Assembly: GCA_963810935.1 (NCBI GenBank) | Contig: CAWEPK010000007.1 | Span: forward strand, 64,001-128,000 | Source: an uncultured delta proteobacterium | GTDB lineage: Bacteria; Desulfobacterota; Syntrophorhabdia; Syntrophorhabdales; WCHB1-27 | Direction: 5' to 3' | DNA: 64,000 nucleotides | In this document: positions 25,779 to 44,894 of the stretch, one piece after another | Numbering within the stretch: the first letter of the stretch is position 1 | How the letters are laid out: each line of letters begins with the position of its first letter | Program-made: the position numbers and the translations under genes | The notes under the pieces: model-generated | What the model saw: the letters and a program-made list of their open reading frames with translations, nothing else | Database searches by the model: none | What the model was told of the DNA's origin: nothing

Positions 25779-26531
25779 TTACCTGCTGAGGCGAAAGGCC
25801 AGCGGCACCTGCACCCACTCATCCACGGCTGTCTCGCCCCGCTTTGCCGGGACAAAGCGCCAGCTCCGCACCGCCTCGCCGGCCGCCTTGTCGAGCACAT
25901 CATAGCCCGACGAGCGGGCAACCTCCAGTTGCAGGACATGCCCCTCCCGGCTCACCAGCACCTTCAGCATCACCGTCCCTTCCATCCCCATCTTCCGCGC
26001 CACAGGCGGATAGGCGGGCCGCGGGTTGTTCAGGTAGGCTGCGCCGAACCTGGGAGGGGTCGCAGTCACGGCCGACCCCATCGACGGCGCCGGAGGCATG
26101 GATGCGTGCGTCTGAAATCCGGGCAGCCCTGCGTCGCGGGAGACGGCGCTCCCGGCAGGTAGGTTCGTCCCCGGCAGGTTCACCGGCGTCGATGACGCGG
26201 GCGCATCGGACGGCGGTCCGGGCGGGGATGGGGCATCGGGCGCGGGCCGCTCGGGGGCCTGCCGCGCCGGCGGCTCTTTGGCGGGAGCGGCCCTGGCGGC
26301 CATGGGGAGCGGCTTCGGCGGCCTGACTGCGGGCGCTGCGACGGACTTCGGGGGCACGCGCTCTTCGAGAAGCTCCGCATCGATTGGGGCCGAGGCGTCC
26401 GGCACGGCCGACATGTGGCCGAGCATCAGGCCGAAGCCGTAAATCAGCGCAGCCCACAAAAGGCAGGCCAGCCCGGCAAGCCACGGCAGCCGCCGCCAGT
26501 GATCGTCAAGACGCTCCGTCGCCCTATGCAT
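25779..26531 (-). CDS. tonB: Energy transducer TonB
   Basis: N-terminal TM, Pro-rich linker, YP..AR..GMEGTV...SSGY..LD.AA...WRF.PA C-terminal domain. Confidence 0.92.
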   Translation of the reverse strand: MHRATERLDDHWRRLPWLAGLACLLWAALIYGFGLMLGHMSAVPDASAPIDAELLEERVPPKSVAAPAVRPPKPLPMAARAAPAKEPPARQAPERPAPDAPSPPGPPSDAPASSTPVNLPGTNLPAGSAVSRDAGLPGFQTHASMPPAPSMGSAVTATPPRFGAAYLNNPRPAYPPVARKMGMEGTVMLKVLVSREGHVLQLEVARSSGYDVLDKAAGEAVRSWRFVPAKRGETAVDEWVQVPLAFRLSR

Positions 26532-26536
26532 TTGCT

Positions 26537-26941
26537 TTATCCGTTATATTTGACTGCTATGAGAAAGTGCTGCGCGCCGGCGCGACGCGCCTCAAGCATG
26601 GCCTTGACTACTACCCCCTGGGGCGCGGCATTGTCGGCAGCAACTATTACGTGGCCGTTAGACGCCTTCAGTTTCGGCATCAGCACCTGCGTAAGGGTGG
26701 CCAGCGTGACGGGCGTCGCATCCAGGAAAATCGCCTGTTCCTTCGTCACGGTGAGCGTGATCGGGGCCTTTGCCTGTATCGGGTCTGCCTTCCCCTCGGG
26801 GAGGTTCACGGGCAGGGAATGGAGGCTCTGCAGGGAGAGGGACGCGAGCATGAAGGTCGCAAGCAAAAAGAACATCACGTCGATCATGGGGATGATCTGG
26901 ATGCGGCCGCTCCGCGCTTCTCTGGACCTGGGGATCTTCAT
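26537..26941 (-). CDS. exbD: Biopolymer transporter ExbD
   Basis: IIPMIDVMFFLLATFM motif; start overlaps the exbB stop. Confidence 0.92.
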   Translation of the reverse strand: MKIPRSREARSGRIQIIPMIDVMFFLLATFMLASLSLQSLHSLPVNLPEGKADPIQAKAPITLTVTKEQAIFLDATPVTLATLTQVLMPKLKASNGHVIVAADNAAPQGVVVKAMLEARRAGAQHFLIAVKYNG

Positions 26942-27612
26942 CTGAGGCCTCCTGCGCGGCCTGCCGCGTCGGCAGTCGCGGTCACCCCGTCCTGCTCGCG
27001 CCGGATGTGGTCGATAAGGTCCGTGCCGAGGCGTTCCATCTCGTCCATCGTCCTCGACTCGAGGTGGGAGAAGAAGTTGAAGGCGAACAGCGCGATCAGC
27101 GCGATAATGAGGCCGAGGGTCGTTGCGATTAGCGCCTGGGCAACGCCGCCCGTGATGCCCGTCGGGTTGACGAGGCCGCTTCCGCCGATGAGCTTGAAGG
27201 AGTCCATCATGCCTACGATCGTACCGACGAGCCCGAGCAAAGGCGCGCCCGTAACGACCGTCTCCAGCACCCACAGCCCCCGCTTGAGGGACTTCTCGAT
27301 CAGCCGGGCCTCTCTGGCCGCCCGCGATTCCACCCACCAGGGCGGCTGGGCGCGGTTCGCCAGGATCACACCGAAAAAGCGCGCGAAGTAGCTCTCCGCC
27401 TTCGCCGCCCCCATCTCAGCCTCAAGCTCGGACCAGCCTGAGCGGTCGCCGTCCAGGACGGCCGCCATCGACCCCGGCAGCCGCCCGTGCCGCCAGTAAA
27501 TGAACGCCTTGTCGAGGATGATCGTAATGGCGACGAGGCCCATGAGCAGCAGGGGGTATACCATGAGCCCCCCGAACTGGAGCGCCTTCATTGTCTGGAA
27601 AAAGTTGTCCAT
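26938..27612 (-). CDS. exbB: MotA/TolQ/ExbB proton channel
   Basis: APLLGLVGTIVGM and GVAQALIATTLGL motifs. Confidence 0.92.
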   Translation of the reverse strand: MDNFFQTMKALQFGGLMVYPLLLMGLVAITIILDKAFIYWRHGRLPGSMAAVLDGDRSGWSELEAEMGAAKAESYFARFFGVILANRAQPPWWVESRAAREARLIEKSLKRGLWVLETVVTGAPLLGLVGTIVGMMDSFKLIGGSGLVNPTGITGGVAQALIATTLGLIIALIALFAFNFFSHLESRTMDEMERLGTDLIDHIRREQDGVTATADAAGRAGGLR

Positions 27613-27623
27613 GTTCGTCTCCT

Positions 27624-29743
27624 TCAGAAATAATAGATCATGCTCAGCCGAAAAGTCAGGGGCTCGACGGGATGGAAGTGGACGTTATTGACCCCTGCGG
27701 CCGGCTCTCCCGGCAGGCGGGACGTATAATAGTATTCGATGTTGGCCGCCTTCGTGTTTAAAAGGTTCAATCCATCGAGCATAACGGTCCAGCTTTTCGT
27801 CAGCTTGTATCCCACCCGGCCGTTGAGGAGCCACGTTGCCGGGGCCCTTTCCGTGTTGTTGTCGACGAGCGGATAAGGGCCCTTGTAATGCAGTTGCAGG
27901 CTGCCGAAGTAGGGTCCCAGGTCATGCACGGCGACGTTGAACGTGCCCACACCCTCGACCGCTCCGGGTATGTGACTGCCCGGCGCGGATGGGTCAATGC
28001 CGGTAAGGCGGGCCTCGACGTAAGCGTAATCCGCGCGGATGGTGAGCCACGGCTTCGGGTTATAGGCGTTCGTCGAGCTCAACGCCGGTGCGGCGACTCG
28101 GCGGTCCGGGCGTTGTCGTGCCGGAGTCGCCGTCGAAAATAAGCTCCGATCCCATATCGAGCCGGTAAACGGTGAGCGCGCTTTGCAGGTTGGGGATAAA
28201 GGACGTGCGCGCCCCGACCTCGTACCCTTCGGTGCGCACCAGCGGGGTAACCCTCTGGCTGGGCAGGTTGGAATCCGGCCCGTTTCCGGGGGTTACGGTC
28301 ATCGTCGTCCCCCTGGCGTCGTTCGAGTGGAAGCCTCCGCCCGCGTTAATAAAATACTCCGTTTTGTCCCACGGGCCGAAAATAAGGCTCAGCTTCGGGT
28401 TGGCCATGCCCGCGCCCGAAGTGCCGGAATTGGCGGGGTTGTCGCTGCTCACGCGGAACTGGTAGAAGTCGGCCCGCACCCCCGTCTCGCTGCGGAACTT
28501 GGAAAGCCAGGGGATGCCGACCTGGTAGTAAAGGCCTTCGGAAGTCTCCATGACGCGGTCGGAGCGGACGATCGACAAAAGCTGCCTGTTCTGCGTGTTG
28601 TTGAGTCCCACGTTGATGTTGTCGTTTTGCGTTTGCAGGCCGATCGTGTGCTGTACGTCACGGCCGCCGACGTTAGTGAGCCAGGCGTGGCTTATGTTGA
28701 TCGCCTCGGTGACGCGCCGGTCCGTCTGCTGGAACTGGTCGCCGTGGACAGGGTCGTTCAGGAAATAAGTGAAGTCGGAATACAAGTCGAGGCTGCTTGC
28801 GATCGCGTATGCGTTGACGCGGGTGACGGAGGTGCCGGACGTGTGCTGCCAGGCCCCGGAAAGGCTGTAGCGCGAGGTGTTCGTGCCGTCCGTCGGGTTG
28901 AGGCTGCCGTATCGGCCGATGATGCCCTCATCCACTGCGCGCTGGGCGATCTGGTTCGTCGCGTTCCCCTCGCTGTGGTATCCCATGCCCTCGATGACGA
29001 GGCTGTCCGGCCCGTCCGCGAGGCTGTATTTCACGAGTCCGTTGAACTTGCGGAAGTGCTCGGGGTTGGTCCACGGGCCGTCATTGTATAAGCGTCTCCG
29101 AGGCGAAGAGGAGGTTGCCCTGGCCCAGCTTGGCCGAGTCTGCGAGGAGGGCGCGGGCGTAGTTGTTCTGCCCGCCCGTCACCATGGCGAACCCTTTTTC
29201 GAGCTTATCGACGTAACCGATGTTGATTGCCCCGACTGATGAGAAATCGCCCTCGTCCGCATAATACGGTCCCTTGCGATAGGCGACGCCCTGCACCAGC
29301 TCCGGTATGAGGAAGTTGAGGTCTGCATAACCCTGCCCGTGGGCGTTCGTCCGCTGGTTGACGAGCATGCCGTCTAAGGAGATGCGCAGGTCGGTGCCGT
29401 GGTCGAGGTTGACGCCGCGCAGGAAATACTGGTTCGCCTTGCCTTCGCCGCTGTGCTGTGTGACGACGAGGCCGGGCGTGACCTGCAATACCTCGCCGGG
29501 GTCGTAGGTCACCTGCGCCTCCACTTCCTTGCGCGGCGCGACGCCTTCACTCGCTGCGTCCTTAGGACCGGCGGGGGGCTCGGCCGAACCGGTGACTTCG
29601 ACGACGTCTAAAGTCTGTATCGGTTCGGGCGGTGCGGCAAAGGCAAGCGGTAGGGCGCATAAGGCGGGCAGGCCGCTCAAGATGATGAGAAGCAGCGCGG
29701 GAGCGCATGCCGATATTTTTTCGAGTCTGCTCTTATGTCTCAT
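27624..29743 (-). CDS. TonB-dependent receptor (probably for a metal such as Ni/Co), split by two probable frameshifts (~29089 and ~28075)
   Basis: Signal peptide, TonB box (DVVEVTG), plug PGLVVTQHSGEGKANQYFLRGVNLDHGTD. Frames join as ETL|YNDGPWTNPEHFRK and VEL|TNAYNPKPW. Ends with an aromatic residue (YYF). Confidence 0.88.
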
Positions 29744-29946: not shown

Positions 29947-30083
29947 CTCTACAAATTACCTGTTTGAATCGGCCCCTGCAGGGCCATGCCGCCCTACCGG
30001 GCAGCTTAAAGTTCCTTATTATTTTTAACATAAGCCTCCGCCCCCGTCAAGGAAAACGGTCGGGAATCGATCCGCCGTTGATA

Positions 30084-30815
30084 TTAAAAGGCGTAGCTCG
30101 CCGTGCCGCCCACCGAGACCCTCTCGGTAAACTGTATCTCCAGGCCGAACTTGAGCTGCTCCAGCCCCAGTATGGAGAACCTTGTTCCGAAAACCCCTCC
30201 CGCGAGGCTGTCGTTCCTTATCGAACGTGACGACTCGACGGCCGCTCCGTTCATTTGGGTGCGCACGTCCTGCGTAGATGCGCCGTAGAAGACCTTAGGG
30301 CCGCCGTAAAAGACGAAAACCTTGCAGGGAGTCCATTGACCCAGGACGGCGAAGCTGGCCGACCAGGGGGCCTTCAATTTGACGGAGCCGGCAGGGGTAA
30401 CGGACTCGTTGTAGTCCGACCAGACGCGGTCGATATAGAGCGTTCCGCCGATATCGAACTGAGGGTTGAACTTGTAAAGGACGCCACGGGCTCCGATGCC
30501 GCTATAGGGTTTCATGTTGTCCTTGAATGAGAAATCGGGTGAGAAATTGGGCAACTGCGCATCGGCGCCGCCAAGCCTCAGGAAGACCTCCATCCCTTTG
30601 CAGAAGCCGTAGCTGCCTTCCGCGAATACCTGGCTCTGCTGGAACCTGAAGCTCCCGCTGTTTTTCCACTTATCATCGTAGAAGAAATACCCCATCCCGA
30701 ACGAGAATTTGCCGGGAGACGCGGCTGGCTCGGCCGGGCCGAGGAGGCTTACCGCGTGGGCCGCCGTAGCAAGAGCCAATATGATTCCTACCGCCATAAG
30801 TAGACCTATCTTCAC
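30084..30815 (-). CDS. Outer-membrane beta-barrel protein
   Basis: Signal peptide ending AHA, amphipathic strands, C-terminal SYAF; AGGAGG RBS with GTG start. Confidence 0.8.
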   Translation of the reverse strand: MKIGLLMAVGIILALATAAHAVSLLGPAEPAASPGKFSFGMGYFFYDDKWKNSGSFRFQQSQVFAEGSYGFCKGMEVFLRLGGADAQLPNFSPDFSFKDNMKPYSGIGARGVLYKFNPQFDIGGTLYIDRVWSDYNESVTPAGSVKLKAPWSASFAVLGQWTPCKVFVFYGGPKVFYGASTQDVRTQMNGAAVESSRSIRNDSLAGGVFGTRFSILGLEQLKFGLEIQFTERVSVGGTASYAF

Positions 30816-33479: not shown

Positions 33480-33549
33480 CCGTTTTTCATCCTCCGAACA
33501 AAAAAAGCGACCGCCCCTTTACCACGGGGGACGAGTCTGTGTATAGCCT

Positions 33550-33715
33550 CCAAGAAGGTCTTCCGGCTTCCGGATCATATTACTTGCCGCGTCTTCCCAT
33601 CCCGCTTGGGCGGAACAGTGACATCGTGCGGCTTTCATCCCCGGTTACGGCGGCGGGTCCGCGACGGATTTGCACCGTCTTCCCTGTTATGGCCTATATG
33701 GCCTCTCGTGAGATA
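33550..33715 (-). ncRNA. Cobalamin riboswitch (controls cbiMN-porins)
   Basis: Minus strand: AACAGGGAAgacGGTGCAAATCCgtcGCGGACCCGCCGCCGTAA...CACTG...GGGAAG...AGCCGGAAGACCT (B12 box). Confidence 0.93.
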
Positions 33716-33819
33716 TTTATCTATAAGCCATCGGCCGGGGGGAAGTCAAGCCTGTTTTGCGGAATTATCATTTGACAACAGTAAGAGTGCGTGCTAAATA
33801 CTCTATAGTCTAACGGGTA

Positions 33820-33993
33820 GTCGGAGGCCCTGGAAAGGGCCTTAAAAGGGAAGCCGGTGCGATTCCGGCACGGACCCGCCGCTGTGTGTGGGGACGAAAC
33901 CCGCTGATAGGCCACTGTGTCGCAAGCCTTAAAGACGAAGCGGCATGGGAAGGCGCGGGGAGTAGGGTGATCCACGAGTCAGAAGACCTGCCG
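33820..33993 (+). ncRNA. Cobalamin riboswitch (controls cbpA-cbpB)
   Basis: AAAAGGGAAgccGGTGCGATTCCggcACGGACCCGCCGCTGT...GCCACTG...GGGAAGGC...GAGTCAGAAGACCTGCC; TTGACA-N17-TAAATA promoter at 33772..33800. Confidence 0.94.
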
Positions 33994-34021
33994 CAAACCC
34001 GATAACACTTGGAGAAAAGGT

Positions 34022-36103: not shown

Positions 36104-36724
36104 GTGAAGAACATGGGCCTTGCAGCATTGGTAAAATCCATGGGATTGAAACGCGAAGCATTCATCTTTGCAACCTTGTTTTGCCTCCTCATCGTTAGTT
36201 GTTCTTTTTCGGTATACGCCGCAGGACCGGACGGCTTTGCCAATATCCCCTGGGGGGCGACGAAGCTGCAAGTCGACCAGGCGATGGCGCGGCAGGGGTT
36301 CAGGCCCGATCCTCGTAATCTATGCAGTCCTGGGATTACTTGCGCCGCCTACCATGGTAATCTGGCCGGGACTCCCGGATACCTTGAGTTTAGTTTTCTT
36401 AACGACGCTTTCTACTCCGGCCGTTTTATGATCCAGGTAAGCGATGGTGGTGGTACCGTGCAACGTGCATGCTCGAAGTTCTTACCCATTATTCAGGCCA
36501 AATATGGCTCACCAACGCAAACGGGTAATCGGCAGGGCATGACAGAATTTCAATGGGACGGGCTTCAACCTCCCGGTTCCCCGGACGCTGTCCAGATATA
36601 TGTGTCTTGCGACCCTGAATCCGAACGTTGCGGAGGGCAGTACTGTACCAGTGTCTTTACGATTATGTATAAGAACACCGGTCTGCAGCAGCATCTCGCC
36701 GGTCAGGACAGGAACGGATTGTAA
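36104..36724 (+). CDS. Hypothetical exported protein
   Basis: AGGAGAGG RBS, signal peptide, GF..IPWG motif and several Cys residues. Confidence 0.65.
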   Translation: MKNMGLAALVKSMGLKREAFIFATLFCLLIVSCSFSVYAAGPDGFANIPWGATKLQVDQAMARQGFRPDPRNLCSPGITCAAYHGNLAGTPGYLEFSFLNDAFYSGRFMIQVSDGGGTVQRACSKFLPIIQAKYGSPTQTGNRQGMTEFQWDGLQPPGSPDAVQIYVSCDPESERCGGQYCTSVFTIMYKNTGLQQHLAGQDRNGL

Positions 36725-36914: not shown

Positions 36915-37012
36915 TTGACATAGCTCGCTTACGATTCTAAACTAAACGTGCCATGAAGGCAGCGACTGGTCCGAAGGCCGGCCCAGGTAAAGTTGCGTCG
37001 TGGCATTTTTTT
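36915..37012 (+). promoter_or_regulatory. Sigma70 promoter plus leader attenuator-like element, GCCAYGAAGGC motif (copy 3)
   Basis: TTGACA-N17-TAAACT (36915..36943), then TGCCATGAAGGCAGC-ga-CTGGTC(CGAA)GGCCGG...GTTGCGTCGTGGCA-TTTTTTT, just before the nikM RBS. Confidence 0.72.
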
Positions 37013-37028
37013 GCCTAAGGAGAGGCGC

Positions 37029-37712
37029 CTGCATATTCCGGACGGATATTTGAGCCCGCAAACCTACCTGCCGCTTTACGGCGCATCGGCCGTGTTCTGG
37101 TCCGTCGCCGTGAAGAAAGTCAGGCGGGACCTGCCAGCTAAGCATGTCCCATACCTTGCGATGGCAGCCGCCTTTTGCTTTTTGATCCAGATGTTCAACG
37201 TGCCTGCGCCGGGGGGGACGTCGGGACATGCGGTCGGGGCAGCGGTTGTCGCCATTCTCCTGGGGCCCTGGACCGCTGTCATCGCGCTTTCGGTCGTCCT
37301 CGTTATCCAGGCCCTAGTCTTCGGAGACGGCGGGATCACGGCGCTCGGCGCTAACTGCTTCAACATGGCGGTGCTGATGCCGTTTGTCTCTTATGCTTTT
37401 TTCAGGCTCATAGCGAGGGGCGCGCCCGGCCGCCGCAGGGTCTTCGTGGCCGCCTTCGTCGCGGGCTACGCGGGTCTTTGCGCGGCAGCGACAGCGGCGG
37501 GCTTCGAGTTCGGCATACAGCCGCTCATCGCGAGCGGACCCGACGGCAGGCCGCTTTACGCCCCGTACCCGTTGAAGATCGCAGTACCCGCGATGGCTTT
37601 AAGCCACCTGCTCGTGTTCGGCGTCATGGAGGGCCTCGTCACGGCCCTGATCGTCGCCTACGTATTCCGCCAGGAGCCGGACCGGTTCAAGGGCCTGCGG
37701 GGGCCGGCATGA
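37029..37712 (+). CDS. nikM: ECF nickel/cobalt S component (NikM-type), apparent CTG start codon
   Basis: (M)HIPDGYLSP, MFNVPAPGGTSGHAVG and FGDGGITALGAN; AAGGAGAGG RBS sits just before CTG-CAT-ATT. Confidence 0.88.
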   Translation: MHIPDGYLSPQTYLPLYGASAVFWSVAVKKVRRDLPAKHVPYLAMAAAFCFLIQMFNVPAPGGTSGHAVGAAVVAILLGPWTAVIALSVVLVIQALVFGDGGITALGANCFNMAVLMPFVSYAFFRLIARGAPGRRRVFVAAFVAGYAGLCAAATAAGFEFGIQPLIASGPDGRPLYAPYPLKIAVPAMALSHLLVFGVMEGLVTALIVAYVFRQEPDRFKGLRGPA

Positions 37713-38084
37713 TTGAAAAAGGCGGCGACCGAGAATAGCGATCGGGACGAGCGGGCATTCAAAAAGAAGCTCCTCATCGGGCTCATCGTGCTTGCCTGCC
37801 TCACGCCTCTCGGCATTATCCTCCCGCGGATTGCAGGCGGGGGCGAGGCTTGGGGGGAGTGGGGCCCGGAATATTTGCACAAGGCGCTCGGGTATTTGCC
37901 CGAAGGCTTGCAGAAGAGTATCGGCGTCTGGCATGCGCCTGTCTCGGGCTACGCGCTTCCGGCCGCAGGAGACTCCCTTGCCTCGCAGATAGCGTCGTAT
38001 GCCGCCTCCGGCGTGGCCGGGCTGCTCATAATAGTGGCGGTCGTATTTATCGTGATGAAGGTAATCAAAGGCCATGAACGATAG
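37713..38084 (+). CDS. nikN: PDGLE-domain ECF accessory protein (NikN-like)
   Basis: LTPLG...AWGEW...PEGL...APVSGY; two TM helices. Exact start is uncertain. Confidence 0.75.
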   Translation: MKKAATENSDRDERAFKKKLLIGLIVLACLTPLGIILPRIAGGGEAWGEWGPEYLHKALGYLPEGLQKSIGVWHAPVSGYALPAAGDSLASQIASYAASGVAGLLIIVAVVFIVMKVIKGHER

Positions 38085-38997
38085 GGTGCCGAAGTTTTTA
38101 TTATCGAAGGCGGAGCCGCCTGCGCCGCGTGCCCACAGCCGCATCCGCCGCCCGTTCATCGACCGTGCCCTCAACCGCATCGGCTCCGTGATCACCGTCA
38201 CCTTCGTCCAGTGGGAGCTTGCCTCGAAAAAGGGCCTCCTTCAATCGGTAGACGCCCGCGTCAAGGTGGTCTGCATGCTCTTTCTTGCGGTGGCCGCAAC
38301 GCTGAAGAACGACCTCGCGGCGCTGTTCGCCCTCGGCTGTTTCCTCGTCCTGCTTGCGGCGTTATCAAGGATCGCCCTCGGCTTCTTCCTGCGCAGGGTC
38401 TGCGTGCTTGCGGTCCTTTTCGGCGTGCTGGTGGGTCTTCCCGCTGCCTTCAACCTGGTGACGCCGGGCAGGGTCGTGCTGCCCATCGTCGCGTTCGACG
38501 GCCCTGTCCGCATCGGCCCGTTTGCCTTGCCCGCTGCGATAGGCATAACGGCCGAGGGGCTGACCATCGTCGCCCGCCTGTTCCTTCGCGTCGCGGATTG
38601 CCTGTGCGCCTCTTTCCTTTTGCTGTACACGACGCCGCTTTCGCAGATCATCAGGTCGCTGAAAGTTTTCCGGGTGCCCGACGCGGTCGTCCTCGTGCTC
38701 TTCCTGGCCTACAAATATATCTTCCTTTTTTCGAAGATGCTCGAGGATATGTACCTGGCCGCGCGCAGCAGGCTCGCCGGCTCCTTCAGCATGAAAGAGG
38801 CGAGGGACTGGTCCGCAGGCAGGGGGGCGGTGCTCTTCCGGAAGACCCAGGAAAGGTGTGAAGACGTGTTCCAGGCGATGACTGCGAGGGGCCTTAACAA
38901 GGGGATCGTCCTTGCCGATTCGTGCGCCCTGAAGGCGGCCGATATCGGCGCCGGCCTTGGCCTGGCTGTTGCGGGAGGTCTGCTGTTATGGCTGTGA
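38074..38997 (+). CDS. nikQ: ECF transmembrane T component (NikQ/CbiQ)
   Basis: DARVK, YKYIFLF...ARSR and AMTARG motifs. Confidence 0.88.
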   Translation: MNDRVPKFLLSKAEPPAPRAHSRIRRPFIDRALNRIGSVITVTFVQWELASKKGLLQSVDARVKVVCMLFLAVAATLKNDLAALFALGCFLVLLAALSRIALGFFLRRVCVLAVLFGVLVGLPAAFNLVTPGRVVLPIVAFDGPVRIGPFALPAAIGITAEGLTIVARLFLRVADCLCASFLLLYTTPLSQIIRSLKVFRVPDAVVLVLFLAYKYIFLFSKMLEDMYLAARSRLAGSFSMKEARDWSAGRGAVLFRKTQERCEDVFQAMTARGLNKGIVLADSCALKAADIGAGLGLAVAGGLLLWL

Positions 38998-39833
38998 CGG
39001 ACTGGCCGGGCATCCTCCAGGCAAGGGACGTTTCATACTCATATCACGGGAAGATCACCGCGTTGTCCGGCGTCACGCTCGACATCCCGGAAGGCCGGAT
39101 AGTGGCTGTCATAGGCTCCAACGGATGCGGCAAATCGACGCTCCTCCACGTGCTCGACGGCCTGGTCTACCCCGCTTCCGGCGCGGTGCTATTCAAGGGG
39201 GCGGAGGTGAGCGAGCGCTCCCTGAAGGACCCGCAGTTTTTGCGCCGCTTCAGGGGGGAGGTCGGCTATGTCTTCCAGGATTCGGACGTCCAGCTATTCT
39301 GCCCGACCGTGCTCGACGAGTTGAAGTTCGGGCCTTTGCAGCTCGGCCTCGGCGACAAAGAGGCGCAGGATAGGGGCATGCAGGTGCTGGAGATGCTGGA
39401 GGTAAGCGCCCTAGCGGACAGGCCGCCGTACATGCTTTCGTCAGGCGAGAAGAAGAGGGTGGCCCTGGGCGCGGCGCTTACCATGAACCCGGACGTCCTG
39501 CTGATGGACGAGCCGACGAACGGCCTCGACCCGAGGACGCAGGTTTTCCTGGTGGAGCTGGTCCTCGCCCTGAATGAGGCGGGCAAGACGATTGTGATCG
39601 CCACCCACGACCTGTCGCTGGTAAGCGAGCTGCGGTGCACGGTCGCGGTGCTTTCGGAAGCGCACGCGATCGAGCGCATCGGAGAATCGGAAGCGATACT
39701 TAACGACAACGAGCTTCTTTTAAAAGTGAACCTGATCCACGAGCACGTGCACTTCCACGGCGAAGTAGCCCACCGTCATATCCACTCGCATTACCTGTTC
39801 CATCGACATAACGAAAGTGCGAAAATAATATAA
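38988..39833 (+). CDS. nikO: ECF ATPase (NikO/CbiO) with His-rich C-terminus
   Basis: GSNGCGKST, LSSGEKKR and LMDEPT; tail HEHVHFHGEVAHRHIHSHYLFHRH. Confidence 0.9.
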   Translation: MAVTDWPGILQARDVSYSYHGKITALSGVTLDIPEGRIVAVIGSNGCGKSTLLHVLDGLVYPASGAVLFKGAEVSERSLKDPQFLRRFRGEVGYVFQDSDVQLFCPTVLDELKFGPLQLGLGDKEAQDRGMQVLEMLEVSALADRPPYMLSSGEKKRVALGAALTMNPDVLLMDEPTNGLDPRTQVFLVELVLALNEAGKTIVIATHDLSLVSELRCTVAVLSEAHAIERIGESEAILNDNELLLKVNLIHEHVHFHGEVAHRHIHSHYLFHRHNESAKII

Positions 39834-39854: not shown

Positions 39855-40064
39855 CTAACGCGAGCGGACTAGCGCTTCGTATTGCTCGCTGTCCCAGCAC
39901 GAGCGGAAGAAACTGCACTCCCGGCATCGTTCTATCCGGCCCGTCTCTATCAGGTATCGCTTGCCCGACCTGTCGGTCACCCCGTGCTTTGCCATCTCGC
40001 CGATGCATGGGGGCGTCCCCGATTTGCAGCCGTGCCTGTTGTCGCAGTTGATGCAATAACTCAT
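39855..40064 (-). CDS. Small Cys-rich protein (69 aa)
   Basis: MSYCINCDNRHGC...PPC...CRECSFFRSC; the first ~14 codons are duplicated at ~40213..40254. Confidence 0.6.
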   Translation of the reverse strand: MSYCINCDNRHGCKSGTPPCIGEMAKHGVTDRSGKRYLIETGRIERCRECSFFRSCWDSEQYEALVRSR

Positions 40065-40105
40065 TTGCTTTGCAATATAAGATACAGGGTGGCGTGTTGC
40101 AAGGC

Positions 40106-40208
40106 AGGGGCGACGCAAGCCCCAGTAAGCCGTTACCGTCTCTTCCTTTTTATGAGGGGGTGGCTCCGCCAGCTTTGCTGGTGGAGGGGGCGACGCAAGC
40201 CCCAGTAA
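40106..40208 (-). repeat. Family A (REP-like) repeat: one full copy (40138..40208) and one partial copy (40106..40128)
   Basis: Minus strand: TTACTGGGGCTTGCGTCGCCCCCTCCACCAGCAAAGCTGGCGGAGCCACCCCCTCATAAAAAGGAAGAGAC. Confidence 0.85.
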
Positions 40209-40398
40209 TTGTTTTGCAGCCGTGCCTGTTGTCGCAGTTGATGCAGTAGCCCATATGTTTCCCGTTTGCCGTGAAGGCTGTTGCGAGCAATATAAGATAT
40301 GGTGCGGCCGGTTGCAAGCTGCCGGCCTGACGGCAGGGGCAAAATATAGATTGTCCGGCCCGGCGCGTTCGGTGTTAGGATAGAATATGAGGGAGTTT

Positions 40399-41892
40399 AT
40401 GGTGCATGCTGCGGACGGGTGTAATTTCGTGTTCGGGGAGGCGACCATCGCCGGCATACACGCCGCGATGAAGGCGGGCAGGCTCACCGCCAGGCAGCTA
40501 GTCGAGATGTACCTCGCCCGCATCGAGGCCTACGACAAAAAAGGGCCGGCGATTAACGCCGTGATCCTGGTCAACCCCAACGCTGCCAAAGAGGCGGACG
40601 CACTCGACGGGAAGCTCAGGAAGTCGGGCTTTGTCGGGCCGCTGCACGGCATCCCGGTGCTCCTGAAAGACAACGTCGAGACCGCAGACATGGCGACGAC
40701 TGCCGGATCGTTGAGCCTCAAAGGCTTCATGCCGCCGGCCGACGCCCCGATAGTCGCCAGGATGCGGAAAGCCGGGGCGATAATCATCGCCAAGGCCAAC
40801 CTGCACGAATTTGCCATGGCGGGCGAGACGTTCAGCTCGATCGCCGGCCAGACCTTAAACCCATACGACCTTACGAGGACGCCGGGCGGATCGAGCGGCG
40901 GTACGGGCGCGGGCCTTGCCGCCGATTTCGCCGTCGCAGGCATAGGTACCGACACGGTCAACTCGGTGCGCTCCCCTGCCAGCGCCAACAGCATTGTCGG
41001 TATCAGGCCGACCATCGGCGTAGTGAGCAGGTCGGGCATCGTCCCGTACGCGCTGACGCAGGACACGGCAGGCGCCATGGCGCGCACAGTGGCAGATGCC
41101 GTGCTGCTGCTCGACGTCATCGCAGGCTATGACCCGCAGGATGCATCGACTGCCTGGGGTGTGGGCCGCATACCGGAGACATATACGGCGTTTCTTAAGA
41201 AAGGCGGGCTCAAAGGGGCGCGGATAGGCGTGCCTCGCGGCTTCTTCGGTACGGGGCCCGAGCACGCGGAGGTGAACGCGGCTGTTCGCGCCTCGATAGA
41301 GATGATGAAAAAGCACGCGGCGATTGTTGTCCCCTTCGACTGCGATATATCCACGGACAATCTGGTGTCGGACGTGAGCGTCCACACAATGGAGCTGAGG
41401 GACCACCTCGACGCCTACCTGAAATCGCGCAAGGCCCCGGTGAAATCGCTTGAGGAGGTCTATGCCTCGGGCAAGTTCCATCCCGGCATTGGAAGCATCA
41501 TCAGACAGGCACTCGGTCTTTCGACGAGCGACGTGGAGTACAAGGACCGGCTCATAAAAAGGGCGAGGCTTCAGGATGCGTTCATGAAGATCATGGCGGA
41601 CAACAGGCTCGACGCGATGATTTTCCCGCACCAGCGCTGCCTTGTAGCGCCGGTCGGCCGGACGCAGGCCGAAAGGCAGGGGATATTGACCTCCGCGACC
41701 GGGTTCCCCTCTATCGTGATGCCTGCCGGTTTTTCCGCGCCTTCGGAGACAGCGCCTATCGGCATGCCCATAGGCATCGAGCTTGTGGGCAGGCCGTGGA
41801 GCGATGGAGAGCTGATAAGGCTTGCCTACTGCCTGGAGCAAGCCGCGAAATCAAGAAGACCCCCGGTAAGCACCCCGTCCCTGCAACAATAA
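40399..41892 (+). CDS. Amidase-signature family enzyme
   Basis: GIPVLLKDN, GGSSGG and GTDTVNSVRSPAS (Lys-Ser-Ser triad region). Confidence 0.93.
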   Translation: MVHAADGCNFVFGEATIAGIHAAMKAGRLTARQLVEMYLARIEAYDKKGPAINAVILVNPNAAKEADALDGKLRKSGFVGPLHGIPVLLKDNVETADMATTAGSLSLKGFMPPADAPIVARMRKAGAIIIAKANLHEFAMAGETFSSIAGQTLNPYDLTRTPGGSSGGTGAGLAADFAVAGIGTDTVNSVRSPASANSIVGIRPTIGVVSRSGIVPYALTQDTAGAMARTVADAVLLLDVIAGYDPQDASTAWGVGRIPETYTAFLKKGGLKGARIGVPRGFFGTGPEHAEVNAAVRASIEMMKKHAAIVVPFDCDISTDNLVSDVSVHTMELRDHLDAYLKSRKAPVKSLEEVYASGKFHPGIGSIIRQALGLSTSDVEYKDRLIKRARLQDAFMKIMADNRLDAMIFPHQRCLVAPVGRTQAERQGILTSATGFPSIVMPAGFSAPSETAPIGMPIGIELVGRPWSDGELIRLAYCLEQAAKSRRPPVSTPSLQQ

Positions 41893-44726: not shown

Positions 44727-44894
44727 TGCGGCGCCGCTAGACTCCGTATCCCTTTGCAGATGATCGTAACACGCCTGCCGTCTGCGCTACAAGCGTGGGC
44801 ATTCGATGAGTGCTCAATTATCGGTGACATCTGCCGATAATCCTTTAGGATAGGCCAGCCGGATAAGCGTACAGGCAATCCACGGGGGAGTTAA

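Follow-up and report, generated by a model that had tools for sequence, protein, structure and literature searches.

Nickel import in bacteria is, by the textbook account, controlled at the DNA level by NikR, and the NiCo class, which governs export, is the only nickel-linked riboswitch that we know to have been described. Here we analyse a short RNA motif that heads two operons with putative nickel-uptake genes in a 64,000-nucleotide (nt) stretch of DNA, referred to as the window (positions 64,001 to 128,000 of contig CAWEPK010000007.1, assembly GCA_963810935.1), from an uncultured delta proteobacterium of the Syntrophorhabdales lineage WCHB1-27. The motif starts with the 11-mer GCCAYGAAGGC, encloses a small hairpin, pairs back onto its 5' arm and ends in a U-tract. 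An original prediction, made from the sequence alone, had taken it for an undescribed nickel-responsive riboswitch or protein-bound antiterminator. Our analyses show it to be a cis-regulatory RNA of the nickel-uptake regulon that is both new and widespread and follows a known logic of attenuation, and we are highly confident that it is a transcription attenuator of this regulon.

Several described systems resemble it in part. In PyrR and TRAP attenuators and in the terminator-embedded aptamers of the HMP-PP/thiS type, the choice between the terminator and another fold is made by a protein carrying its ligand or by a small ligand itself. The motif shares with them the short leader and this choice of folds, whereas the RNA motifs and proteins are unrelated; we know of no attenuator of this type for nickel. 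In guanidine-II (mini-ykkC) RNAs a variable linker connects a pair of small hairpins that share one short, conserved loop, of consensus ACGR. Our motif also has paired small hairpins of like loop and a variable linker, but it differs in loop consensus and gene context and one of its hairpins doubles as a terminator arm. According to excerpts from PMC3369931, the targets of ANTAR proteins are two small hairpins with 3-bp stems and hexaloops bearing A1 and G4, bound by a dimeric protein and competing with a terminator. Two small hairpins of like loop compete with an intrinsic terminator here as well as in the targets of EutV, NasR and AmiR. The loops of the motif, however, are of 5 nt (A-N-G-N-A) or 4 nt (N-G-N-A) with the G at position 3 or 2, its switchable hairpin is the whole 5' arm, and its second hairpin is nested inside the terminator.

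The NiCo (czcD) riboswitch folds as a four-way junction and switches exporters ON, as stated in excerpts from a 2024 review of metal sensing (PMC11672702). Like the motif it is a cis-acting RNA of Ni/Co homeostasis that controls termination; the motif, in contrast, is an unbranched rod in front of importers. The same excerpts name riboswitches for Mg, Mn, Ni/Co(Fe), Li, Na and Ca and contain no class for nickel import, and neither riboswitch nor terminator occurs as a word in a genomic study from 2024 on the nickel homeostasis of cable bacteria (PMC11247825). NikR controls the same kinds of genes, namely nikMNQO and those of TonB receptors, but is a DNA-binding protein; excerpts from Rodionov et al. 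(2004; PMC545781) assign the Geobacter nik(MN)QO genes to NikR boxes. Full-text searches on nickel riboswitches, nikM/CbiM leaders and NikR turned up no paper on such an element, in a coverage that misses most subscription journals, and an earlier description is possible.

Three copies of the motif in the window

Copy A (36950-37012, + strand) precedes nikMNQO. Its 5' arm, which can fold on its own as the small hairpin GCC-AUGAA-GGC (P1), occupies 36950-36960, the enclosed hairpin (P2) lies at approximately 36966-36986, the 3' arm ends at 37004 and the U7 tract covers 37006-37012. Copies B (29944-29891) and C (29808-29754) are arranged in tandem on the - strand ahead of a TonB receptor. Copy B has GCC-ACGAA-GGC as P1, an inner hairpin with the loop UUGAA/UGA, the 3' arm GCCUUCGCGGC and U7, and copy C has GCC-AUGAA-GGC as P1, the inner hairpin CAGCC-GGAA-GGCUG, a 3' arm and U7. 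All three copies had been predicted to within 1-2 nt of these positions. The features ascribed to them were seen in each, namely the start GCCA(C/T)GAAGGC, the enclosed hairpin with a stem that differs between copies, the back-pairing and the seven T.

Folding of copies A, B and C gave minimum free energies (MFE) of -30.9, -27.4 and -43.2 kcal/mol, with z-scores against shuffled sequences of -3.7, -2.7 and -6.3, and long unbranched rods as structures. In all three a G+C-rich stem runs directly into the U-tract, as in an intrinsic terminator. The end of the -10 hexamer of the nik promoter at 36943, 6 nt ahead of G36950, agrees with the prediction that copy A begins at the transcription start. 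The underlying observation is therefore confirmed as genuine and the finding as real.

A scan of the window against Rfam 15 at gathering level returned only two cobalamin riboswitches, away from the motif copies. With permissive settings copy A remained without a match at E <= 10 (NiCo, Cobalamin, mini-ykkC and TwoAYGGAY included), and copies B and C matched only small RNA models at chance level (E 1.8-3.7, far under the gathering scores). The element thus matches no existing family, which, together with the rod structure and the importers downstream, bears out its predicted dissimilarity from the cobalamin and NiCo riboswitches. From 20 motif copies we derived the covariance model R1. Within the 4.06-Mb genome to which the window belongs (G000), R1 recovered all three copies, with E-values of 1e-10 to 1e-12 (copy A 54 bits, E 1.1e-10; copy B 55.7 bits; copy C 61.2 bits), the next match being at E = 0.004, and no fourth copy. 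The 11-mer GCCAYGAAGGC occurs 27 times in this genome, and only these three occurrences are followed by hairpin and U-tract. The original prediction had named as a contrary outcome an occurrence throughout the genome unrelated to metal transport genes, as of a generic terminator or repeat; the three copies are the only ones in this genome, and all stand in leaders of putative nickel-uptake genes.

Conservation and RNA structure

R1 detected the motif in all 21 genomes of the same family, with 1-4 copies each, in one of 74 genomes from other families of the order (G088), and in 43 of 151 genomes of an even sample of the phylum (E <= 1e-4). A pattern scan with one genome per species yielded at least 123 loci; among the matches listed, record titles named Desulfobacterales, Desulfobacca, Syntrophobacteraceae, Nitrospirota/Thermodesulfovibrio, Acidobacteriota and Clostridia/Bacillota. 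Because about 200 matches are expected by chance in 596 Gb (hand calculation), the pattern matches were re-scored with R1. At E <= 2e-5, 108 of them were retained and fitted to R1 as alignment A7, which has 107 distinct rows.

In A7 the inner hairpin P2 showed double changes at five of five pairs, in 16-47 sequences each. The rod also varies: position 5 is CG in 75 sequences, UA in 19, UG in 10, GC in two and AU in one, and is never unpaired; position 7 is AU in 90, UA in three and GU in one; and position 1 is GC in 88, GU in 18 and AU in one. Since rod and P2 covary and all five whole-structure measures lay above slid controls, the terminator rod is considered real.

The 5' arm shows a second kind of constraint. 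Positions 8-11 (AGGC) are invariant despite lacking an in-register pairing partner in 9-35 of the 107 sequences, and in some leaders (L233, L234) rod pairing is limited to GCCAC/GUGGC. Folding of the arm on itself as P1, GCC-ANGNA-GGC, is possible in 107 of 107 sequences (pair 1-11 is GC in 98, GU in eight and AU in one). In the P1 loop N5 and N7 are variable and G6 and A8 invariant, which mirrors the consensus N-G-N-A of the P2 loop. Among 144 folded pattern matches P2 loops were UGAA (15), AGAA (13), CGAA, AGGA, AUGAA and AGCA (four each) and ACGAA (three). In many leaders another stable hairpin, P0, lies 25-60 nt ahead of the motif; it frequently has the form GCC-AYGAA-GGC on an extended stem. 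When the 110 nt upstream of each motif were searched for hairpins with an AYGAA loop and a stem of 4 bp or more, 20 of 107 leaders had one, as compared with three in the reverse complement and a mean of 0.6 (maximum 3) in shuffled sequences.

The original prediction had held that the 5' arm can alternatively fold into tandem small hairpins. This is backed by RNAalifold, which gave P1 and P2 on the first alignment, by copies A and C, which fold as P1 and P2 when cut before the 3' arm, and by the look-alike hairpins upstream. We infer that P1 is a functional hairpin. P1 and P2 together reach about -14 to -18 kcal/mol, compared with about -27 to -43 kcal/mol for the rod. A DNA operator for a dimeric repressor was also considered; it is ruled out by the spacing of the arms, which varies from about 20 to 45 nt.

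Genes downstream of the motif

For gene context, the longest open reading frame (ORF) starting at most 350 nt downstream of each match was scanned against Pfam. Set 1 comprises 64 ORFs from 65 of 80 covariance-model matches, the other 15 having been dropped as opposite-strand duplicates and low scorers, and set 2 comprises 46 ORFs from the phylum sample and the window's family. Transport components recur in both sets (numbers for sets 1 and 2, respectively): CbiM/NikM (8, some fused to PDGLE or DUF4198, and 11), CbiQ (1 and 4), DUF4198 (4 and 1), TonB receptors (3 and 12), ExbB/TonB (3, all ExbB, and 2), OprB/BBP2/MetA-type channels (6 and, as OprB/MetA-type, 3), SBP_bac_5 (NikA-like; 3 and 2) and Peripla_BP_2 (2 and 1). 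DUF3842 (2 and 1) and TP_methylase (2 and 1) were likewise found in both. Set 1 alone contained BPD_transp_1 permeases (2), CooT (1), FmdE (2), S-adenosylmethionine (SAM) methyltransferases (4), ECF S components (2) and DUF6802 (3), and one each of PP-loop ATPase, FeS/DUF3786, DUF3450 and transposase; CobN (1), DUF3786 (2) and flavin reductase (1) appeared in set 2 alone. No Pfam hit was obtained for 12 ORFs of set 1 and four of set 2. The motif, then, almost always precedes genes of nickel uptake and trafficking, and model search and gene tabulation together place it before nickel-uptake genes across several phyla.

Nickel rather than cobalt is the likeliest metal, because CooT binds nickel, the S components belong to the NikM(N)/DUF4198 type, and the window has a separate cbiM operon under a B12 riboswitch. 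Cobalt, which is less likely, would be compatible with the CobN, TP_methylase and BtuF-like genes that also lie downstream of the motif. In the window's own family the downstream classes are nikM, TonB receptors and a methyltransferase-ABC ATPase-permease cluster. The last of these, a third class of motif-led operon (L019, L024-L028), encodes a SAM-dependent methyltransferase, an ABC ATPase and a ZnuB-like permease.

Promoter-like sequences accompany many leaders. A sigma-70-like site with at least 9/12 matches was found within 150 nt upstream in 51 of 106 leaders, compared with a mean of 12.6 in shuffled sequences. In 17 of the 106 the -10 hexamer ends 4-9 nt before G1 (shuffles: mean 0.6, maximum 3), and the motif therefore begins at the predicted start in these leaders. 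The other 34 sites lie 10-111 nt upstream of G1, mostly 40-111 nt, which leaves space for P0.

Co-occurrence with DUF3842 and CooT

CooT has so far been viewed as a nickel chaperone of CO dehydrogenase. In the phylum sample, comparison of genome lists showed DUF3842 in 41 of 43 motif genomes and in 17 of 108 genomes without the motif, and CooT in 41 of 43 and 49 of 108, respectively. The two motif genomes lacking DUF3842 are G119, whose motif match is weak, and G197, which is 85% complete. NikR_C, on the other hand, is depleted, being found in nine of 43 motif genomes versus 63 of 108 genomes without the motif, and in nine of 58 genomes with DUF3842 versus 63 of 93 without. In family f22 CooT and NikR are each present in 4/4 genomes, with DUF3842 and the motif both missing, so that the motif is followed more closely by DUF3842 than by CooT. 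The same division runs through the order, where the window's family and the other families have DUF3842 in 18/21 versus 0/74 genomes, CooT in 21/21 versus 2/74 and NikR in 1/21 versus 59/74. G000 (93% complete) yielded no NikR_C domain. Outside the phylum DUF3842 was present in 16 of 21 motif-bearing genomes.

In every case examined cooT directly follows DUF3842, and in G000 the two genes overlap (C8:189231-188651); the pair is conserved and translationally coupled. The gene order motif - DUF3842 - cooT - promoter - P0 - motif - nikM was found in several families (L233, L234, L239, L120, L101), and cooT lies within 1 kb of the motif in 11 sampled genomes from six families. Two subtypes of CooT can be distinguished. 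One, beginning MCEVKVF, always stands beside DUF3842 (G000 C8:188651-188827; L232); the other, beginning MCQT, is solitary and adjoins a FabH-like gene in G000 (C1:172630-172806; L231). In one family the leaders of DUF3842-cooT itself (L115, L202, L209) carry about three hairpins with loops of the UGAA or GGAA type, such as GGCCC-UGAA-GGGCU, and no terminator; these hairpins may serve translational autoregulation.

CooT (PF10133) is an all-beta protein of about 65 residues with an N-terminal Met-Cys, of which M1 and C2 are invariant in 24 sequences. G000 has two matches to the family; CooT matched the known structure 6fan (E 8.7e-5), and its structural model (pLDDT 91.7) gave Z-scores of 11.8 to 6fan and 9.1 to 6y8v. 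Excerpts from PMC6006190 describe CooT as a dimer of unclear function that takes up one Ni, with a Kd of 9 nM. For DUF3842 we found no sequence match in the Protein Data Bank (PDB), no NCBIfam model and, in the literature, a single paper, which is unrelated.

Operons and neighbouring genes in the window

The nik operon is preceded by a sigma-70-like promoter, TTGACA-17-TAAACT (36915..36943, + strand, 10/12 matches). The nikM/cbiM-family S component (37029..37712, +; Pfam CbiM, E 5.4e-66) appears to start at CTG 37029, where CTG-CAT encodes M-H of M-H-I-P-D-G, with the Shine-Dalgarno sequence AAGGAGAG at 37017-37024. Relatives have TTG, CTG or ATG as nikM start codon at the equivalent LHIPDGYLSP position, and the mechanical ORF start, TTG 36993, falls within the terminator stem. 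The N-terminal Met-His is the metal ligand in NikM/CbiM. The operon continues, by Pfam matches on the same strand, with a PDGLE-domain (NikN-like) protein (37713-38084), CbiQ (38074-38997) and an ABC ATPase (38922-39833). Among public RNA runs, one metatranscriptome contained a small share; its contigs come from a relative (85-95% alike) and cover part of nikM (37019-37381) only, and not the leader. No NikR box was found near the nik promoter, and the whole window contains a single match, at chance level, at 44746. About 100 nt upstream of the nik promoters of relatives (L014, L015, L020, L030) the sequence TTATTATACTACAG...AAAGGTAGTC is conserved and includes the inverted repeat ACUAC/GUAGU; this element is common to the nik upstream regions of these relatives and not obvious in the window.

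On the - strand, the leader of the TonB receptor is preceded by a sigma-70-like promoter, TTGACG-18-AAAAAT (30021..30050, 9/12 matches). Between it and copy B, at the P0 position, folding predicted two stable hairpins (29971..30005) with the loops GGUA and GCA/UGCA (MFE -26.1 kcal/mol, z -2.8). Receptor leaders of relatives contain the related hairpins GGCCC-CGAA-GGGCU and GGCCCC-GCA-GGGGUC. The predicted receptor operon was recovered insofar as a TonB receptor, ExbB (27612-26938; Pfam MotA_ExbB) and TonB (26531-25779; Pfam TonB_C) are found behind copies B and C (ExbB and TonB together at 25779..27612). The receptor itself (27624..29743) is distributed over three ORFs instead of one, a plug ORF (29743-29081; Pfam Plug) and two barrel ORFs (29034-28060 and 28082-27624; Pfam TonB_dep_Rec_b-barrel), and this could reflect frameshifts, a pseudogene or assembly errors.

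The two cobalamin riboswitches are true Rfam matches and are divergent (33536-33724, -; 33805-34009, +). One precedes cbiM, a 94-residue ORF, an OprB-type porin and a 243-residue beta-barrel protein, and the other a radical-SAM/SPASM gene. Since one of them heads the neighbouring cbiM operon, separate RNAs for cobalt and nickel import stand side by side in the window. Three neighbouring ORFs were considered as regulators and rejected: 36104-36724 resembles a secreted protein, 30084-30815 an outer-membrane barrel, and 39855-40523 is a doubtful ORF.

Discussion

The results support the interpretation of an undescribed nickel-linked leader in which dual GAA-loop hairpins oppose a terminator, through the lack of an Rfam match, the conservation and the look-alike hairpins, and that interpretation was essentially right. 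As to whether the RNA or a protein senses the metal, which the original prediction had left undecided, we lean to a protein. We propose, and give it close to an even chance, that the attenuator responds to nickel and that a trans-acting factor, for which the DUF3842-CooT pair is the best candidate, holds its hairpins.

The stop form would be the most stable fold, the long rod followed by U7, acting as an intrinsic terminator before nikMNQO and twice in tandem before TonB receptor-exbB-tonB, where copies B and C would be two checkpoints. In the go form the near-invariant 5' arm would fold alone as the 3-bp P1 (GCC-A-N-G-N-A-GGC), so that P1, the nested P2 (loop N-G-N-A, mostly NGAA) and often P0 would present the same type of loop. 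A multimeric trans factor may bind these loops, keeping P1 closed and the 5' arm away from the 3' arm. When nickel is scarce the factor would be bound and transcription would read through; when it is plentiful the factor would be released and the terminator would form. It is the polarity of this response and the identity of the factor that we infer. CooT is a candidate for the metal sensor, and DUF3842 appears the likelier part to contact RNA. Taken a step further, P0, P1 and P2 could be the RNA operator of a new nickel-sensing ribonucleoprotein switch, with CooT as sensor and DUF3842 as RNA-binding antiterminator, the two together replacing NikR; this we put forward tentatively, at somewhat less than even odds.

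A number of points weigh against this proposal. On the RNA side, P1 has just 3 bp and essentially no covariation of its own (one double change), and most seed sequences were gathered by a pattern with a fixed 5' arm. On the side of distribution, DUF3842 was not detected in five of the 21 genomes from outside the phylum that carry the motif, and G088, which is 100% complete, has the motif before a TonB receptor and neither DUF3842 nor CooT. In the window's family DUF3842 and cooT, as a pair, have no linkage to the motif and a leader that is free of it. Elsewhere both genes are often downstream of the motif, and their co-occurrence could reflect membership in the regulon rather than a regulator role. 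The genomes are moreover related, so that the counts overstate independence, yet the pattern recurs across many families. As for the proteins, neither has the appearance of a typical RNA binder, CooT being acidic (median pI 4.95, 24 sequences) and DUF3842 neutral (median pI 7.8, 17 sequences). CooT is said to have been called 'Sm-like' by Timm et al. in 2017, which our own fold search did not bear out: similarity of the CooT model to Hfq was weak, the best row being 3hfo with Z 2.6 at rank 45. The DUF3842 model (pLDDT 85.9) is weakly Rossmann-like, with matches to UbiX-like proteins, the FtsZ N-domain and USP proteins at E >= 3.6e-4 and TM of about 0.45.

Some of these points would suit a protein-free metal riboswitch. 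Here Ni2+ (or Co2+) would be bound by the RNA, perhaps through the conserved G and A in the NGNA loops or within the G-U-rich upper rod, and would favour the terminator, giving an OFF switch for uptake genes with DUF3842 and CooT as mere members of the regulon. Such a switch is compatible with the absence of both proteins from G088, with DUF3842-cooT often lying downstream of the motif as regulated genes do, with nucleotide conservation that is very strong across phyla, and with a G-U wobble at rod position 9 in 40 of 107 sequences. The motif can also start at +1 with nothing upstream, and riboswitches for Mg, Mn and Ni/Co are established, as excerpts from PMC11672702 show. What it explains poorly is the architecture: the look-alike hairpins number from two to four with linkers of 5 to 60 nt, and there is no conserved junction or pocket. 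In addition, the rod is far more stable than P1 and P2, so that a ligand favouring the rod would add little, and no antiterminator is formed by RNA only. The association with DUF3842 is also tighter than would be expected for one cargo gene. Because hairpin number and spacing vary and no fold of the RNA alone competes with the rod, we rate the riboswitch lower and regard it as unlikely, if a serious contender.

That the copies are plain intrinsic terminators, or members of a dispersed repeat, and have no part in regulation is improbable. Every copy is indeed a good terminator, and those with perfect stems read as terminators on the opposite strand too. Generic elements, however, would hardly be confined to three copies in 4.06 Mb, placed downstream of promoters and directly upstream of nickel genes, or share a 5' arm conserved across phyla and a gene context that is not random. 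In a milder version the short, stable leader RNAs, approximately 60 nt long, would work chiefly in trans, for instance by sponging up the factor; that P0 and P2 would be retained in terminated leaders is in line with it.

Lastly, the motif as target of an ANTAR-domain antiterminator is very improbable, and ANTAR as its general partner is largely refuted: although the dual-hairpin-versus-terminator scheme with 3-bp stems that had been likened to ANTAR systems does fit (excerpts from PMC3369931) and G000 encodes one such protein (GAF-GAF-ANTAR, 407 residues, contig C3:45105-45260; L189), the gene for this protein does not adjoin the motif, the loops are not hexaloops with A1 and G4, and ANTAR occurs in 17 of 43 motif genomes versus 44 of 108 others in the phylum sample and in 0/4 genomes of each of families f11 and f12, where the motif is in 4/4.

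An element of about 55 nt that marks nickel transporters can point to them in unannotated genomes, among them TonB receptors, porins, DUF4198 and DUF6802 proteins and methyltransferase-ABC clusters. If the proposed attenuator is correct, an RNA-level switch for nickel import would be a new class of metal regulation, and DUF3842 and CooT would acquire a testable function. Under the more far-reaching reading, the DUF3842-CooT pair would govern nickel uptake as master regulator in many of the Desulfobacterota, Nitrospirota and Bacillota. The switch would also explain how nickel for hydrogenases and CO dehydrogenase is controlled in the many anaerobes that lack NikR.

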